Shown here: positions 38,883 to 44,216 of the stretch, piece by piece
Position numbering within the stretch: the first letter of the stretch is position 1
Layout of the letters: every line of letters begins with the position of its first letter
Source of the DNA: Candidatus Caenarcanales bacterium
GTDB taxonomy: Bacteria > Cyanobacteriota > Vampirovibrionia > Caenarcaniphilales > Caenarcanaceae
NCBI GenBank assembly: GCA_030065015.1
Contig: JASJDU010000001.1
Span: forward strand, 13,814 to 77,813
DNA length: 64,000 nucleotides
Direction of reading: 5' to 3'
Translations under genes and position numbers: made by a program
The notes under the pieces: model-generated
What the model was told of the DNA's origin: nothing
The model's database searches: none
Seen by the model: only the letters and a program-made list of their open reading frames with translations

Positions 38883-38969
38883 GGAGAGGTGCCAGAGTGG
38901 TTGAATGGACCGGTCTTGAAAACCGGCATACCCGCAAGGGTATCGTGGGTTCGAATCCCACCCTCTCCG
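38883..38969 (+). tRNA. tRNA-Ser (anticodon UGA) with a long variable arm.
   Basis: Acceptor GGAGAGG/CCTCTCC, D-arm 'GCCAGAGTGGTTGAATGGAC', anticodon loop 'CTTGAAA', extended variable arm 'GCATACCCGCAAGGGTATC', T-arm 'GTGGGTTCGAATCCCAC'. CCA is not encoded. Confidence 0.85.
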
Positions 38970-39049
38970 AAGTCTTACGAAAAATCAGATAAAGCTATCT
39001 ATAAAAACGACTTTTGATTCAAAGCAAATTGTTTGAAAACTATTTAATT

Positions 39050-39373
39050 TCATTGATGAAGAACTTTTATTAGCTTGGATTTCAGAGGAGGAATGTCAAC
39101 TCGTAGAATTTTGGAGACAATATCTAGATCAATTTCAAAATATTGATGTACCAAAAAGTTTCTAAATGCAATAATTTCTGACCAGCTCACAGAAGCTTGT
39201 TTTTCTTTGAATTCTTGCGATAAAGATCTGCAAGACTCACCAATACACTGCAGATAATGAATCATTGCAGCTTGAAGGACTTCATCTCTTATAAATTGAT
39301 TTTCATCATAATACTTCTCAATCTTATTAATATTTTCGAGAATATCCCGAATTTTTTCCAAATCATCCCTCAT
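39050..39373 (-). CDS. hepT: HepT-like (DUF86) RNase toxin of a HepT/MNT toxin-antitoxin pair.
   Basis: 'FRNFLVHQYFEID' matches the R-x4-H-x-Y catalytic motif. 107 aa. Overlaps the upstream mntA by 4 nt. Confidence 0.8.
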   Translation of the reverse strand: MRDDLEKIRDILENINKIEKYYDENQFIRDEVLQAAMIHYLQCIGESCRSLSQEFKEKQASVSWSEIIAFRNFLVHQYFEIDLDIVSKILRVDIPPLKSKLIKVLHQ

Positions 39374-39660
39374 AAAGGGATAGACTCATTAATCACTCTA
39401 TTTCTAATTCTCTCCTTCAAACCATTTATGGTTGCAACATCCACTGTTAAACCAAGCAATTCTTCTAAATCTTTTATTAATCCCCCCGGAAACCAAGGAG
39501 ATATATTGTCTCCATAATCCACCAAGAGATCTATGTCACTGGTCTCGGAAGCTTCTCCCCTGGAAACAGAACCAAAAATACGAATATTATAAGCTCCATG
39601 TTTGCTTGCAATATCTAGAATCTCTGCTCTTTTATTATTTATTAGTTCATAGATATTCAT
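39370..39660 (-). CDS. mntA: MNT-type minimal nucleotidyltransferase antitoxin.
   Basis: 'IFGSVSRGEASETSDIDLLVDY' (GS-x9-13-DxD). 96 aa. Confidence 0.85.
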   Translation of the reverse strand: MNIYELINNKRAEILDIASKHGAYNIRIFGSVSRGEASETSDIDLLVDYGDNISPWFPGGLIKDLEELLGLTVDVATINGLKERIRNRVINESIPL

Positions 39661-39995
39661 TATTTATATGGTTTATCTTTTATCTCACAAACTATTTTAC
39701 CCTTTCACGCTGTCCTTAATTAACTAGATAAACCTGTCCTGCAACTAGTAGAAAAGTAGTGAAAATCTTTTTGTTAAGAAGAAGCTTACAAAAGATCAAA
39801 GTAAAATTAAATGTACCCACTTTCTAAATGAGGGATTACCCGAAGGGTTTAATATGTAGATATAAAAGAATGCACGATTAGGTTTTCTTAATCGCCATTT
39901 AAGATAAAGGGGTTATTTTGTAAACAAGTAGAGAGAACCCAAAGTCAAAAAGGGTTTATGTAATGGGTTTTCTTGTTTGAAAGCGGGGTTTTATT

Positions 39996-40688
39996 ATGTC
40001 TGTTCGTACAGTAGCAAGAACAAATACATTCAATAATCAGATTGCAAGATCTACAAGTAGGAATGTTGCACCAAGCAATTCTAATGACACATTTACTCCT
40101 GGCCAAGATTCATCAAGAATCCCAGGCTTTGGTCAGGGAAATTCAGTTGTTAATAACAACAATTTAAATTTAGATGTTCCATTTGACATATTGGGGACTT
40201 CTAGAGCACTCTTAAACCCAAGAGTCATTCCAACAATACTTGAAAAAGCCGCTGCTTTAGATGCAACAGGTGGTATTGCTCCCGTAACAGCAGATGGAGT
40301 AGAAACAGGAGTTGTAGCTTCATCCTCTGCAGCAGGACTGTATGAAATTGGAGCAGCAACTGAAGGAAGCTTTAATTATTCTTCTAAAGTACTTGAAAAT
40401 ATAAATACAATACTTGGTTTTCTTGAAACCAATGATGTAAATTCATTTCAAGCCGCAATAAGACAAGGGGGCGGGCAAATCAGCAAGAACGAATCAGCTG
40501 AGCTGTTTAATCAACTCCTTAGGAATCAGGCTTTAATTAAAACAGCACTTGGGCAAGCTGTTCCAAGAGAAAGATTGAGGAATCAAAGGCTTCAAGCTGC
40601 TAATCAAAGAAGACAACAAAACAATCAAAAAACCGCCAACTTAGGTGAGCAGCCACAAATTAATAATGCCGGAGGACCAAGGACTTAA
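39996..40688 (+). CDS. Hypothetical protein, paralog A of a tandem three-gene family.
   Basis: 230 aa. Disordered N/S/T-rich N-terminus; conserved core 'LDATGGIAPVTA..G..TGV.ASS.A.GL..I', 'LETNDVN.F.A', 'NQALI.TAL'; C-terminus '..NNAGGP'. About 50% identical to paralog B over ~150 aa. Confidence 0.6.
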   Translation: MSVRTVARTNTFNNQIARSTSRNVAPSNSNDTFTPGQDSSRIPGFGQGNSVVNNNNLNLDVPFDILGTSRALLNPRVIPTILEKAAALDATGGIAPVTADGVETGVVASSSAAGLYEIGAATEGSFNYSSKVLENINTILGFLETNDVNSFQAAIRQGGGQISKNESAELFNQLLRNQALIKTALGQAVPRERLRNQRLQAANQRRQQNNQKTANLGEQPQINNAGGPRT

Positions 40689-40783
40689 GATTGGAATCTA
40701 GAGAGAAATTTAGTATATTCCATAAGATAAAACCTTAAACAAGATTTATTAGCATATGTATAAGTTATCCAACTTGTACTATC

Positions 40784-42135: not shown

Positions 42136-42142
42136 CTATCTA

Positions 42143-43537
42143 TCAAGAACTTTGGTTACCCAACTGCGGTTGTTTAAAGCCTTTTTGTATATAATCATTA
42201 AGCGCTTTCGCCGCATTCAATTTAGAATCAAGATTTTTAATTTTTGAATCCAATTGAACTGAAGCAACTTCTCTAAAAGTAATCAAATTATAGGCAACCT
42301 TATCTTCAGCAATTGCCTTTGCTAAACCAATAGAGTTGTTATTTTTCTTGTCAAAACTAATCGCGTCTCTCTGCGCATCAGCCCATGAATACTCGTTGTT
42401 AGACTTTGCTTGGCCGATAATGTAGTTTCGCAAATCTTTTAGAGGTTGAGGAAGGTTATTTTGATTATTCTCCCCACCAAGGAAAATCTCTGCGTCGAAT
42501 TTCTTTTTTGGATCTCCCTCCATAAGAAACTCAACTGATTTATTATCATTAGAAACTTCTCGGAGAAGAGTCCTTGAAGAAACATTTCTAGCTTCAAGTT
42601 GAATTTCATCGCTAATAATCGATGCAAATAGCAAATTAATTGTTTTGAGTTGCTGAGAGGCAAAAGGTAAATACCAAGTTGAATAAATAGGATCATTAGG
42701 ATCACGCAACATAATCGTTCCTTGTAAATTACCAATAAAATCATTAACTAACACACGAATGTTATTCTCACTGAAAGGTATTTTTCTGGCCATATCCACA
42801 AAAAATCTCACATACTCATCTGGGGAAGTTCCCTGTATTCCTTTTTTCCGGAGAGCCTCTAAACCACTGTTATATTCCAGAAGGAACTCGGCAGAGTCAA
42901 TACTGGACGATCTTCTAAAAGTTTCTTTTTGCTGATCTTCAGAGACTTTCACTGATACATTGAGTCTTGCATTATCCAATCCATTTAAATCAGTATTAGA
43001 GGTCAAAGCTCCGTTATAAGATCTGTTTACATCAGTTATATGATCACTTTGTCTAATCAAAGCAGAAAAAATTGCCTGTTCTTTATATCTCGCAATATCT
43101 TCTGGAGAAGAAGTATTTGAGACAAAAGGATCTAATTTTGTCTCTGGAAGTGCAATATTATCCTTATCATCATCTATTTCCTGTATTGCTAGAAATAAGT
43201 CTTTCATCTCACTGGCTTCAACTTCATTGTCAGAGCCAAACTTTTGACTTGTAATAAATTCTTGAACAGCTTCTGCAGCAATTTCATATTTATCTATCTG
43301 AGAATCATCCGTCTTTTGATATTCCTCCTGTATTTTATTTTTTAAATCCTGACCAGATAAAGTATCTTTATATTTATCTATTAATGCTGTTTTAATAAGC
43401 TTTTTAGACTCTTGCTCTAGTAATGTTTTTAGGTTCTTTAAATTTATGGAACGATAGCCATTCTTTTTTAGAAATCCATTAGGTTCTACTGAAAAAACTT
43501 GAGCAGCTTTTTGTCCTAATTGAGATAAATTACTCAT
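42143..43537 (-). CDS. Hypothetical 464-aa protein, no signal peptide.
   Basis: Long ORF with a strong SD 'GGAGGAG' 8 nt upstream of the ATG at 43537. No recognisable domains. Confidence 0.5.
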   Translation of the reverse strand: MSNLSQLGQKAAQVFSVEPNGFLKKNGYRSINLKNLKTLLEQESKKLIKTALIDKYKDTLSGQDLKNKIQEEYQKTDDSQIDKYEIAAEAVQEFITSQKFGSDNEVEASEMKDLFLAIQEIDDDKDNIALPETKLDPFVSNTSSPEDIARYKEQAIFSALIRQSDHITDVNRSYNGALTSNTDLNGLDNARLNVSVKVSEDQQKETFRRSSSIDSAEFLLEYNSGLEALRKKGIQGTSPDEYVRFFVDMARKIPFSENNIRVLVNDFIGNLQGTIMLRDPNDPIYSTWYLPFASQQLKTINLLFASIISDEIQLEARNVSSRTLLREVSNDNKSVEFLMEGDPKKKFDAEIFLGGENNQNNLPQPLKDLRNYIIGQAKSNNEYSWADAQRDAISFDKKNNNSIGLAKAIAEDKVAYNLITFREVASVQLDSKIKNLDSKLNAAKALNDYIQKGFKQPQLGNQSS

Positions 43538-43689
43538 TGCACTTTCTCCTCAAATGGCAAAAAAATACCCCCACCAATCCAAAACATTAAATTTGGATTA
43601 AATTATTTATATTAATTTTTGCCCCTCGCCTGTCTAAATATGTAAGAACACTCAAACAGGAAAAGACACACAATGTTAAAAATAATTAA

Positions 43690-43830
43690 CGCGCATCATT
43701 CCAGCAGAATACGCCGTTAAGAATCCTGATTCTGGGAGGCGTATGTTACCGAAGCCAGTAAAATCCGAGGTTCGGGCTGCGGCAGCCCGGGAGCGGGTTC
43801 GTTAAGGGCCGGCGGCAGGCCCTTAACACC
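43690..43830. ncRNA. Candidate structured RNA or cis-regulatory element: a GC-rich island with nested perfect hairpins in an AT-rich intergenic region.
   Basis: Local GC is well above the ~35% background. Perfect 10-bp hairpin GTTAAGGGCC-GGCGGCA-GGCCCTTAAC (43801-43827); 7-bp hairpin CGGGCTG-CGG-CAGCCCG (43783-43799); helices ACGCC..GGCGT and GAATC..GATTC (43711-43742). Identity and strand are unknown. Confidence 0.3.
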
Positions 43831-43901
43831 AAACGACAAGAACTGATCTAATCAGCTTATTCAAAGATCAGACCAAATTTTCAAAAAATGAAGTCAAAAA
43901 A

Positions 43902-44216
43902 TCAATCAATAACAGCACCATGTTCATTTAACCAATCTTCAAGTTCAGTAACTTTAACCAAAATACGTCCATCTTCTTTTCTATTACGTATAAAACCTTG
44001 TCGACGAAGAGTGGTTGTAGCTTTAATTGAATAATTCAGGGAAACTTCTGCTTGTTTTGCTATTTGAGCCATATTCATGCCTTCTTGAAGAAGTGCACCG
44101 TGCTCAGTCATAATTCCTTTATTTAAAACATGTAAATAAATAGCGTGAGCAACTCTTACTTCCGGTTCGAGATTAACTTCTGCATTCTGTTCAGTTTGCT
44201 CAACTTGAGAATCCAT
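43902..44216 (-). CDS. Small putative helix-turn-helix DNA-binding protein.
   Basis: 104 aa. 'MNMAQIAKQAEVSLNYSIKATTTLRRQGFI' looks like an HTH. Acidic N-terminus. Confidence 0.4.
   Translation of the reverse strand: MDSQVEQTEQNAEVNLEPEVRVAHAIYLHVLNKGIMTEHGALLQEGMNMAQIAKQAEVSLNYSIKATTTLRRQGFIRNRKEDGRILVKVTELEDWLNEHGAVID

Follow-up and report, generated by a model that had tools for sequence, protein, structure and literature searches.

A probable mosaic of separate elements between tRNA-Ser and rpe on a Candidatus Caenarcaniphilales chromosome

Background

Does the gene block between tRNA-Ser(UGA) and rpe represent one genomic island, or separate elements brought together on the native chromosome? 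The block lies in a 64 kb stretch of DNA (the window) from the core chromosome of a Candidatus Caenarcaniphilales MAG, an uncultured non-photosynthetic cyanobacterium. In a preliminary description, the region from 38.9 to 44.2 kb was proposed to be an old, decayed island at the tRNA gene, stabilised by a HepT/MNT toxin-antitoxin (TA) pair, or else a lineage-specific module. Here the block was compared with the rpe-HTH loci of 10 related Caenarcaniphilales lineages. The comparison indicates that it is very probably a mosaic of 4 independent elements rather than a single island. Taken together with the mechanism suggested below for its main proteins, the whole explanation has an even chance of being right.

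Content of the block

All features of the preliminary description (tRNA, TA pair, paralogs, 464-aa ORF, hairpins, and HTH-like gene) were found where they had been placed, between the histidine kinase and rpe genes named as flanks (Table 1). The rpe gene serves as an anchor and lies outside the block itself. The 3 tandem paralogs P1, P2, and P3, together with X, are referred to as the cassette.

Table 1. Features of the block and its flanks (window positions)
Feature	Position	Strand	Remarks
Histidine kinase (HK)	36930-38669		Flank of block, upstream of tRNA-Ser
tRNA-Ser(UGA)	38882-38970	+	ARAGORN; Rfam tRNA, 60.6 bits
HepT-like HEPN RNase toxin, 107 aa	39050-39373	-	Pfam PF01934, 2.4e-24, 85.8 bits (cutoff 23.5)
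MNT-type nucleotidyltransferase antitoxin, 96 aa	39370-39660	-	Pfam PF01909, 1.5e-12; PF18765, 3.3e-10
TA-cassette junction	39661-39830	.	Non-conserved, synteny breakpoint; L001 alignment loses similarity upstream of ~39830
P1 leader/promoter	39831-39995	+	Conserved non-coding; ~165-190 nt align with L001 at ~80% identity
P1, small cassette protein, 230 aa	39996-40688	+	L001 ortholog 71% identical
P2, small cassette protein, 231 aa	40784-41479	+	
P3, small cassette protein, 192 aa	41557-42135	+	Most widely recognisable member
X, all-alpha orphan protein, 464 aa	42143-43537	-	Convergent with P3; no Pfam or NCBIfam match
X 5' leader/promoter	43538-43654	-	Conserved; aligns with L045 1020-1136
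GC-rich hairpin cluster	43655-43880 (core 43690-43830)	-	Between HTH stop and retained terminator-like hairpin with U tract
Small HTH-like protein, 104 aa	43902-44216	-	Sub-threshold HTH_17 (0.0036) and Rrf2 (0.0063)
rpe, ribulose-phosphate 3-epimerase	44300-44977	+	TIGR01163, 258.6 bits (cutoff 212.6)

The Rx4HxY motif of HepT (RNFLVHQY) and the GSx10DxD motif of MNT (GSVSRGEASETSDID), both read in the translations, are intact, and the two ORFs share 4 nt. Against the NCBIfam models HepT_toxin and MntA the proteins score 50.5 and 40.5 bits, each under a cutoff of 60. HepT/MNT is an ordinary toxin-antitoxin pair. Only the HTH-like gene was confirmed in part: the ORF is present, and since its Pfam matches are sub-threshold, its HTH nature is plausible but unproven. 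The protein has 17 relatives at 56-84% identity, so far named from Caenarcaniphilales only, and no relative in the PDB.

Composition, synteny, and the toxin-antitoxin pair

Compared to the window's own distribution, all 7 block genes have GC z-scores within +/-1.6 and codon-distance z-scores below 1. Outliers in composition are limited to the low GC3 values of P2 and HTH, which deviate in the host's AT-rich direction. The GC, GC3, and codon usage of the block are therefore native, and the deviation from the flanks that had been proposed as a check on the island was not seen. The block contains no integrase and no meaningful direct repeats, in agreement with the preliminary description, and the repeat of the tRNA 3' end for which it had proposed a search was not found, nor any att-like repeat.

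Across the 10 lineages, synteny anchors the block at its rpe end rather than at its tRNA end. The rpe and HTH genes are adjacent and divergent in 10 of 10, that is, in every locus fetched, representing a conserved divergent pair in which the HTH-like gene is a putative regulator. The histidine kinase and tRNA-Ser form a conserved pair as well, adjacent also in L003 and L006; the genes that follow the tRNA there are unrelated to those found here, and homology between lineages stops at the tRNA 3' end. The direct junction of HK-tRNA-Ser to rpe, proposed earlier as something to look for, was seen in no relative, and a clean empty site is absent. Where the far side of the cassette is visible, its neighbor is an M17 aminopeptidase in 3-4 lineages (called by Pfam in L038 and L058, and by eye from an N-terminal fragment in L001 and L057), and never tRNA-Ser.

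A decayed island at tRNA-Ser is thus largely refuted and has very little probability left. It could draw on the synteny breakpoint at the 3' flank of the tRNA in three lineages, on the position of the TA pair immediately beside the tRNA, and on the relatives without a cassette. These points are opposed by the native composition, by the absence of integrase and att repeat, by the setting of the cassette in other lineages, where rpe-HTH is its anchor and pepA, instead of a tRNA, its other neighbor, and by cassette divergence that follows host divergence. The TA pair is also separable from the cassette. HepT/MNT is absent from the sister locus L001, where conserved sequence resumes ~165 nt upstream of P1 and an M17-like peptidase gene is reached on the side equivalent to the junction. 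This absence marks the pair as a separate small insertion, not as cargo of a gene-delivering island, which it had been taken to be.

The outer cassette edge is the site both of the HepT/MNT insertion and of a rearrangement through which the cassette became joined to HK-tRNA-Ser. It is reasonably probable that HepT/MNT alone (~0.7 kb plus junctions) is mobile DNA inserted next to tRNA-Ser; its arrival may have accompanied or caused the rearrangement in which the ancestral neighbor, pepA, was replaced. Besides the sister lineage without the pair, non-conserved junction DNA on both sides points to such an event, as does the match of MNT to the PADLOC candidate defence family PDC-S09 (5e-35). Other TA genes also occur at different points of the locus, namely HicBA in L039/40 and NTase/NTase_sub_bind with DUF6883/DUF4926 genes in L058. 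The pair is, however, without flanking repeats or a recombinase, and it resembles the host in GC and codon usage, indicating that the insertion is either old or derived from a related donor. An insertion of this kind is compatible with the mosaic and is the central part of the island idea that survives.

The cassette and its evolution

P1 and P2 are 43% identical. Profile-profile comparison of P1/P2 with P3 by hhalign gave 94-95.5% probability (E 1e-7 to 1e-8) over the C-terminal ~80 columns, so that the 3 same-strand genes had been correctly described as paralogs; judged from these profiles, P3 is a true but distant one. With an hhalign probability of 86% for P1/P2 against Q, the small cassette proteins appear to form one superfamily. 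Orthologs of P3 were recognised at 67% identity in L001, 45% in L058, 32-33% in L037, 25% in L039, 24% in L057, and 22-23% in L048. X, for which the earlier statement that it has no known domains held, matched itself only in a word-indexed search; when 1.84 billion representatives were searched exhaustively with HMMER, 3 real relatives and 1 low-complexity match were returned. Its homologs are a fragment in L001 (56%), L048_X520 (28%), and L039_571 (24%). For the "short X" proteins of L037, L057, and L058 and for the R proteins (L037_257, L057_278), the equivalence is one of position only, homology not being demonstrable.

The leaders of these genes are also retained to some extent. In L037 and L038, the 5' part of the P1 leader can still be discerned ahead of the first small gene; hairpins are predicted in it from an alignment of two sequences only, which has no covariation power. 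The X leader contains a promoter-like site (43636-43609) and the motif TTACATATTTAGACAGG, partly retained in L048.

The cassette stands beside HTH in 6 of the 10 relatives (L001/L045, L037/38, L039/40, L046/48, L057, and L058). X and P3 are always convergent; a distance of 2-20 nt separates their stop codons in the five lineages for which it was measured, and the distance here is 7 nt. The gene order and typical composition that the preliminary description would have accepted as evidence of a core origin were found for HTH, X, and the paralogs. In 3 of the 10, however, HTH has no cassette beside it, and the cassette is therefore clade-restricted rather than universal; no homologs of its proteins were found outside the clade. 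The cassette is a clade-restricted element beside HTH in which X converges on tandem P3, P2, and P1, and the earlier fallback of a lineage-specific module is supported for these four large ORFs. We infer vertical inheritance with loss, which the lineages without a cassette leave short of proof.

The dN values are 0.28-0.31 for P1-P3 and 0.42-0.78 for X, compared to 0.075 for HTH and 0.09 for rpe, so that amino-acid change in the cassette proteins is 3-10 times faster than in their neighbors. The dN/dS values of P1 and P2 against L001 are 0.12-0.13. The cassette proteins are real genes under purifying selection, yet fast-evolving.

Possible roles of the cassette proteins

No match to Pfam, NCBIfam, PDB, PHROG, or PADLOC was found, even with 19 cassette proteins scanned individually at E <= 1. 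Structure models are helical and of low confidence (pLDDT 43.2 for the AF2 model of X). Cys is absent from 17 of the 18 tabulated proteins and His from all small ones. N+Q amounts to 13-20% in the small proteins and 10-15% in the larger partner proteins; P1 contains 0 Cys, 0 His, and 0 Trp, with 19.6% N+Q. The small proteins have S/T/N/Q-rich N-termini without a signal peptide, ~60 N-terminal residues predicted to be disordered, a predicted long terminal helix, and poly-Gly C-terminal tails. These features suggest partly disordered, non-enzymatic proteins in which X would bind the small paralogs, probably through the long C-terminal helices, and so build or decorate a structure. Self-assembly without enzymatic activity is put at roughly even odds. 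The small proteins might be exported without Sec, the flagellar type III apparatus being the most plausible route and the proteins its accessory or late substrates, and the HTH protein and long conserved leaders would control expression.

Export by the flagellar route is the leading guess, a tentative one that is less probable than its opposite. It is drawn from the lack of signal peptide, Cys, and His, the disordered S/T/N/Q-rich N-termini, the quick divergence, and parts of the fli operon that flank the rpe-HTH anchor in two lineages. Flagellar genes are reported to be common to Gastranaerophilales and Caenarcaniphilales and have been inferred to be ancestral to the class Melainabacteria (PMC4040986). 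In L046, fliO/P/Q/R abut rpe-HTH on a contig joined to the cassette contig L048 by a 17-nt end overlap only; in L057, the distance from rpe is 4.5-5.5 kb for fliJ (at the Pfam threshold) and a FliK-like gene (sub-threshold). Nevertheless, homology ties the cassette to flagella nowhere, housekeeping genes separate it from the fli genes in both lineages, and most cassette-bearing loci are without fli genes nearby. The window itself has no flagellar or secretion genes, with the exception of an unrelated TpsA toxin. Furthermore, the absence of Cys and His and the disorder suit cytoplasmic scaffold proteins equally. Such scaffold or granule proteins, phasin-like or condensate-forming and regulated by HTH without any export, are a slightly less favored and likewise doubtful explanation. 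The helical C-terminal halves, N/Q-rich disordered regions, several paralogs under low sequence constraint, adjacent small DNA-binding-like protein, and absence of secretion genes from the window would all be in keeping with it. No Phasin or PHA family was matched, however, and the HTH gene is kept in lineages without the cassette, indicating that it is not cassette-specific. Scaffold proteins also leave unexplained the fli linkage and the neighboring signal-less, hydrolase-like genes (in L057 and L058, proteins with a Cys/His C-terminal domain, one with a weak CHAP match, E 0.015, adjoin the cassette). A defence, toxin-immunity, or phage-derived module is most improbable. The cassette proteins evolve rapidly, TA pairs cluster around them, and 1 kb past rpe there is a gene for a polymorphic TpsA/PT-HINT/Ntox44 toxin; but PADLOC and PHROG gave no match, enzymatic or nuclease motifs are lacking, the chromosomal position of the cassette is fixed across lineages, and the TA pairs, inserting at varying positions, look like passengers.

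The GC-rich element

The described hairpin cluster was confirmed, with 65-67% GC at 43750-43839 in a genome of ~35% GC. The spacer between HTH and X is 364 nt here, compared to 182 nt in the sister locus L045, which has a canonical terminator, and the cluster is absent from L045 and all other relatives. The ~190-nt GC-rich element is an insertion in the 3' region of HTH that is peculiar to this lineage. It may be an inert MITE-/PATE-like relic or a functional small RNA, either standing alone or originating from the HTH 3' UTR; the small RNA is possible but the less likely of the two. One copy is present in the window and one lineage carries it, which makes a covariation test impossible; the sister lineage and every other relative do without it. 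No Rfam family, plasmid, phage, or viral contig was matched, and a clear promoter is lacking. An unrelated multi-copy GC-rich hairpin element known from other metagenomes indicates that such insertions can be mere repeats. A small RNA would, on the other hand, be in keeping with a GC content ~30 points above the genome and comparable only to that of the tRNA: GC of at least 0.55 is reached in only four 80-nt patches of the 64 kb, the cluster and the tRNA among them. It would also fit the well-defined fold of the minus strand (-66.1 kcal/mol, z = -3.8, 0 of 200 shuffles as good, centroid near the MFE; z = -2.1 for the plus strand) and the terminator-like hairpin with a U tract at the 3' end.

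Setting of the block

As seen in the feature table, every item of the preliminary description was found at its place. The block's proteins match, with full identity, entries from a MAG of Candidatus Caenarcaniphilales, a non-photosynthetic cyanobacterium in the Vampirovibrionia/Melainabacteria. The surrounding window is ordinary chromosome, with a ribosomal protein operon, genes for EF-G, MnmE, RNase III and YbeY, and biosynthetic genes, and its GC content is about 35% throughout, the block included. The term cassette is used here for X and the three tandem paralogs P1-P3. Contigs of related lineages carry L numbers; L001 and L045 belong to the sister lineage.

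Features of the block and its surroundings in the window, with positions in relatives where these were compared
Feature	Position	Strand	Remarks
GC-rich patch	3881-3990		in L2 ribosomal protein gene; coding
tRNA-Ser(tga)	38882-38970		tRNA prediction; Rfam
HepT	39050-39373	-	Pfam HepT-like, 2.4e-24
MNT	39370-39660	-	Pfam NTP_transf_2, 1.5e-12
P1 leader, non-coding	39831-39995	+	L001 625-795, ~80% identical
P1-P3	39996-42135	+	three small paralogs
P2	40784-41479	+	low GC3
ORF antisense to P2	40879-41274	-	taken as artefact
X	42143-43537	-	464 aa
X leader	43538-43654	-	conserved: L045 1020-1136; L048 about 150-223
HTH gene	43902-44216	-	104 aa; low GC3
rpe	44300-44977		
Polymorphic toxin gene	45138-50363	-	1741 aa
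GC-rich patch	45791-45950		in C-terminal part of toxin gene; coding

The block adjoins the 3' end of tRNA-Ser, which is a synteny breakpoint, and it has a toxin-antitoxin (TA) pair. These traits are shared with tRNA-associated genomic islands, and an old, decayed island had been proposed. Unlike such islands, the block has no integrase or att duplication, its composition is native, and relatives keep its gene order on the rpe side, opposite the tRNA. The proposal is left unsupported. The lack of an integrase or clear att repeat, already remarked in the preliminary description, held on searching. No integrase or recombinase ORF or Pfam match was found at 38.9-44.3 kb, no second copy of the 25-nt tRNA 3' end in the 64 kb at up to 3 mismatches, and no direct repeats bounding the block. 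Deviation in base composition or codon usage, suggested as a check, was not seen; the GC, GC3 and codon-usage distance of all seven genes lie inside the window's own spread. Low GC3 was observed in P2 and the HTH gene (z about -3 relative to the window's other genes) despite a normal codon-usage distance, and expression level may be its cause.

On the tRNA side, the histidine kinase (HK) gene upstream of tRNA-Ser was used as a query, and orthologs 59-72% identical were retrieved from four related genomes. The HK-tRNA-Ser adjacency is preserved in two of the four. The genes past the tRNA differ in each genome, nucleotide homology ends exactly at the tRNA 3' end, and neither rpe nor the TA pair nor the cassette was found beyond the tRNA in any of the four. 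Direct joining of HK-tRNA-Ser to rpe, suggested as a point to check in relatives, is absent from L003, L004 and L006. A rearrangement in the window's lineage put the cassette beside HK-tRNA-Ser. In the block, a passenger TA pair, a native orphan cassette and a conserved regulator gene stand side by side. The main value of the analysis is this correction: tRNA adjacency together with a TA module is insufficient for an island call in poorly sampled lineages.

Farther along, the window encodes a 1741-aa polymorphic toxin with TPS secretion, pretoxin HINT and C-terminal Ntox44 toxin domains (TpsA/PT-HINT/Ntox44). Neither a TpsB transporter nor an evident immunity gene was recognised beside its gene, and the MnmE gene is next downstream.

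Conservation of the cassette beside rpe

Neither GTDB genomes, scanned with the X alignment, nor JGI metagenomes, scanned with the paralog alignment, gave a match; related loci were found through the HK and HTH neighbours. The small HTH-like protein had been announced as such: the 104-aa ORF is present, and its HTH character is indicated by sub-threshold matches only, namely HTH_17 (0.0036), Rrf2 (0.0063) and TIGR00738 (0.0027). The best E of the family profile against PDB is 0.18, and one JGI entry is labelled GntR-like. Relatives of the protein number 17, with identities of 56-84%. Every locus retrieved by way of these relatives has rpe and the HTH gene as a divergent pair, and the cassette comes next after the HTH gene in six further lineages. 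Unrelated genes follow the HTH gene in three lineages (L041, L043/44 and L047). On its far side the cassette borders an M17 peptidase gene in L038 and L058, as assigned by Pfam, and a similar N-terminal fragment, assigned to the peptidase by eye, in L001 and L057. From this pattern of rpe-side synteny, the cassette is anchored to rpe-HTH and clade-restricted, and we infer that it was inherited along with the host. The more cautious alternative to an island, a lineage-specific module, is supported for X and P1-P3.

Lineages with the cassette beside the HTH gene: identity to the window's proteins and positions of the facing X/P3 stop codons
Lineage	Identity	Facing stop codons
Window		42135/42143
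L001/L045	P1, P2, P3 orthologs 67-75%; X 56%	2950/2956 (L001)
L058	P3 45%; P2 55%	
L037/38	P3 32-33%	5732/5735 (L037)
L039/40	X 24%; P3 25%	8054/8061 (L039)
L046/48	X 28%; P3 22-23%	1786/1807 (L048)
L057	P3 24%	

The layout of the cassette is unusually rigid. X and P3 converge, with their stop codons 2-20 nt apart in the five lineages measured. This is too close for a terminator, and the two transcripts are therefore predicted to overlap at their 3' ends. Additionally, both transcription units, X and P1-P3, have long conserved leaders. The first ~50 nt of the P1 leader are still recognisable in L037 (about 7214-7420, minus strand) and L038, where the proteins are at most 33% identical; its conservation suggests an operator or an RNA leader. 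Within the X leader are TTACATATTTAGACAGG and a hairpin enclosed by a long-range inverted repeat that is AT-rich, GGCAAAAA / TTTTTGCC.

The dN of the cassette proteins is 3-10 times that of rpe and the HTH gene. For P1 and P2 the dN/dS is ~0.12-0.13; dS between the window and its sister is saturated, so that the ratio is estimable for P1, P2 and the HTH gene only. The cassette genes are real, constrained and fast-evolving. As taxonomically restricted genes whose layout is rigidly conserved they make a clear case: near-touching convergent stops and long conserved leaders are combined with repeated TA insertion nearby.

The HepT/MNT-like pair

A HepT/MNT pair with both motifs and a 4-nt overlap (39370-39373), as first described, can be read directly from the translations and ORFs. 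HepT contains RNFLVHQY, an intact Rx4HxY motif, and MNT contains GSVSRGEASETSDID, an intact GSx10DxD motif; MNT is encoded immediately upstream of HepT and overlaps it. The motifs, the gene order, the overlap, the sizes of ~96 aa (MNT) and ~107 aa (HepT) and the two Pfam domains are all shared with type VII HepT/MntA systems. Unlike the curated type VII equivalogs, both window proteins score below the NCBIfam cutoffs (NF047751 and NF047752; 50.5 and 40.5 bits against 60), and for this reason they are labelled HepT/MNT-like. MNT also matches the PADLOC candidate family PDC-S09. The type VII antitoxin neutralises its toxin enzymatically, by AMPylating it.

The pair lies exactly at the synteny break of the window. 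Sister contig L001 lacks it, and conserved sequence restarts there ~165 nt upstream of P1; beyond that stretch, the DNA of L001 leads to the peptidase gene. The pair is apparently a solitary insertion, separate from the neighbouring cassette. Other TA-type genes were observed in relatives: HicB/HicA within the cassette in L039/L040 (8872-9269), and NTase with NTase_sub_bind as well as DUF6883 with DUF4926 between the HTH gene and the cassette in L058 (3863-5177). Different TA-type genes thus occupy different points of the locus, and TA pairs are therefore recurrent passengers, not island cargo. TA modules appear to have landed repeatedly in the rpe-HTH-cassette region.

Cassette proteins

Known kinds account for the recognisable parts of the block: the tRNA, the HepT/MNT-like pair and the small HTH-like regulator are ordinary members of these. 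The cassette is an orphan family set. X and P1-P3 have no match in Pfam, NCBIfam, PHROGs, PADLOC or PDB sequence profiles, in agreement with the initial view of X as a convergent protein devoid of known domains. A loose scan of 19 cassette members returned no family that recurs among the weak matches. Among 1.84 billion cluster representatives, three are real relatives of X, and the paralog family has two in a 5.8-billion word-indexed set. P1 and P2 are 43% identical, and P3 is a distant but real paralog of both (hhalign 94-95.5%). By profile comparison the small proteins are one superfamily, with values of 95% for P1/P2 against P3 and 86% for P1/P2 against Q, another of the small proteins. 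The same comparison gave no link between X or P1/P2 and two further kinds of protein from the relatives' loci, 'short X' and R (L037_257, L057_278).

Cys is absent from 17 of the 18 cassette proteins tabulated, and His from the small ones. Asn and Gln make up 13-20% of the small proteins against 10-15% of the larger partner proteins. The N-termini are of the form M-[V/I/T]-x-x-[I/V]-N, and every small protein has a long C-terminal helix and then a Gly-rich tail. X was also considered as an IscB/TnpB-like protein whose guide RNA would lie upstream, a reading dismissed for lack of nuclease domains and motifs; a retron reading was rejected because there is no reverse transcriptase.

Possible functions

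The cassette proteins would be non-enzymatic, partly disordered and helical, and their mutual association is probable. With no signal peptides, and with neither Cys nor His in the small ones, they could be exported independently of Sec through the flagellar type III apparatus. This is the leading guess, a tentative one that would more readily prove wrong than right. Late flagellar type III substrates and accessories of the FlgM, FlgK/L, FliD, FliK and FlgJ class are likewise Cys-poor and without signal peptides, have S/T/N/Q-rich disordered N-termini and terminal helices, and are poorly conserved in sequence. The cassette locus lies near fliJ and a FliK-like gene in L057 and near fliOPQR in L046; in these two lineages the rpe-HTH anchor is thus flanked by two parts of a canonical fli operon. 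Flagellar genes are reported to be common to Caenarcaniphilales and Gastranaerophilales and were inferred to be ancestral to the class Melainabacteria (PMC4040986). Unlike axial flagellar proteins, the small cassette proteins have Gly-rich C-terminal tails, and a Pfam scan of 19 cassette proteins at E <= 1 gave no match to axial, cap, junction or regulatory families (Flagellin_N/C, Flg_bb_rod, FliD, FlgM, Flg_hook and others). No fli genes occur in the window or in L037, L039 and L058, and the flagellar link is circumstantial. The main rival, a set of cytoplasmic scaffold or granule proteins, is about as tentative as the leading guess. Several small, helical, fast-evolving paralogs beside a small DNA-binding-like regulator gene are also the pattern of phasin/PhaR granule loci. 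Those loci have no counterpart to the N/Q-rich disordered N-termini or to the large convergent partner protein, the HTH gene here persists in lineages without the cassette, and Pfam scans revealed no Phasin or PhaR homology.

In L046 (72-6117), genes for FliO, FliP, a 341-aa protein whose N-terminal part is a FliQ domain, and FliR directly adjoin rpe-HTH; this contig overlaps the cassette contig L048 by 17 nt. In L057 (336-1434), 4.5-5.5 kb separate rpe from FliJ (at the Pfam threshold) and the FliK-like gene (Flg_hook 2e-4, below cutoff). Three proteins of 197, 268 and 226 aa are encoded beside the cassette on the minus strand of L057 (6321-7736) and L058 (5160-5840). They have no signal peptides, their disordered N-termini are cassette-like, and their C-terminal domain contains Cys and His; one of them has a weak CHAP match (E 0.015, below cutoff). 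Perhaps they are hydrolases of the cell wall that belong with the cassette.

An extended form of the export reading, which we regard as distinctly improbable, would join the cassette and the hydrolase-like genes into an unrecognised flagellum-associated, type III-exported set of a Caenarcaniphilales subclade (for example filament, sheath, cap or regulatory parts). The set would be controlled by the HTH protein and the leaders, and the GC-rich insert between the HTH gene and X would independently be a young sRNA borne in a 3' UTR. If flagellum- or surface-associated, the cassette would extend the motility apparatus of non-photosynthetic cyanobacteria, which has been little studied, by parts specific to a lineage. 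For now it is one of many unexplained orphan loci in metagenome-assembled genomes.

The GC-rich element

The GC-rich cluster, one of four 80-nt patches with GC >= 0.55 in the 64 kb, peaks at 65-67% GC and folds best on the minus strand (z = -3.8). The spacer from the HTH gene to X is 364 nt in the window and 182 nt in sister contig L045, where it consists of a canonical terminator (CAGAAG...CTTCTG, then T9) and the leader conserved with the window. The extra ~190 nt of the window, including the 140-nt GC-rich core, are situated between the HTH stop codon and a terminator-like hairpin that has been retained together with a U tract; the insert would therefore lie in the HTH 3' UTR on the minus strand. 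The element was not found in the other relatives' loci, and the window has no further copy of it. A GC-rich patch in L037 proved unrelated.

Rfam gave no match in a 10-kb scan at E <= 1, and a focused scan gave at best 15.8 bits (E = 2), where the gathering score is 60. Plasmids and phages (by BLAST) and viral contigs gave no match to the insert. As a lineage-specific cluster of stable hairpins, ~150-190 nt long and placed in an intergenic terminator region, the insert resembles REP/MITE/PATE-like insertions and 3'UTR-derived sRNAs. Unlike these, it was seen in one copy only and has neither terminal inverted repeats nor a target duplication. Candidate terminal repeats were rejected as AT-rich chance matches or as lying within the conserved X leader. 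The insert, represented by a single sequence, may be an sRNA of recent origin or else the inert relic of a repeat.

Its sequence relatives are limited to a single 27-nt hairpin. A metagenome scan with the most distinctive hairpin retrieved eight contigs, in which similarity stops at the hairpin edge. Four of these, the JGI contigs L050, L051, L053 and L056, have in common a multi-copy GC-rich hairpin element of ~200 nt, which begins just after a T-run. It is likely to be a repeat or mobile element unrelated to the insert, with which it shares the 27-nt hairpin only; three of the four contigs terminate inside it.
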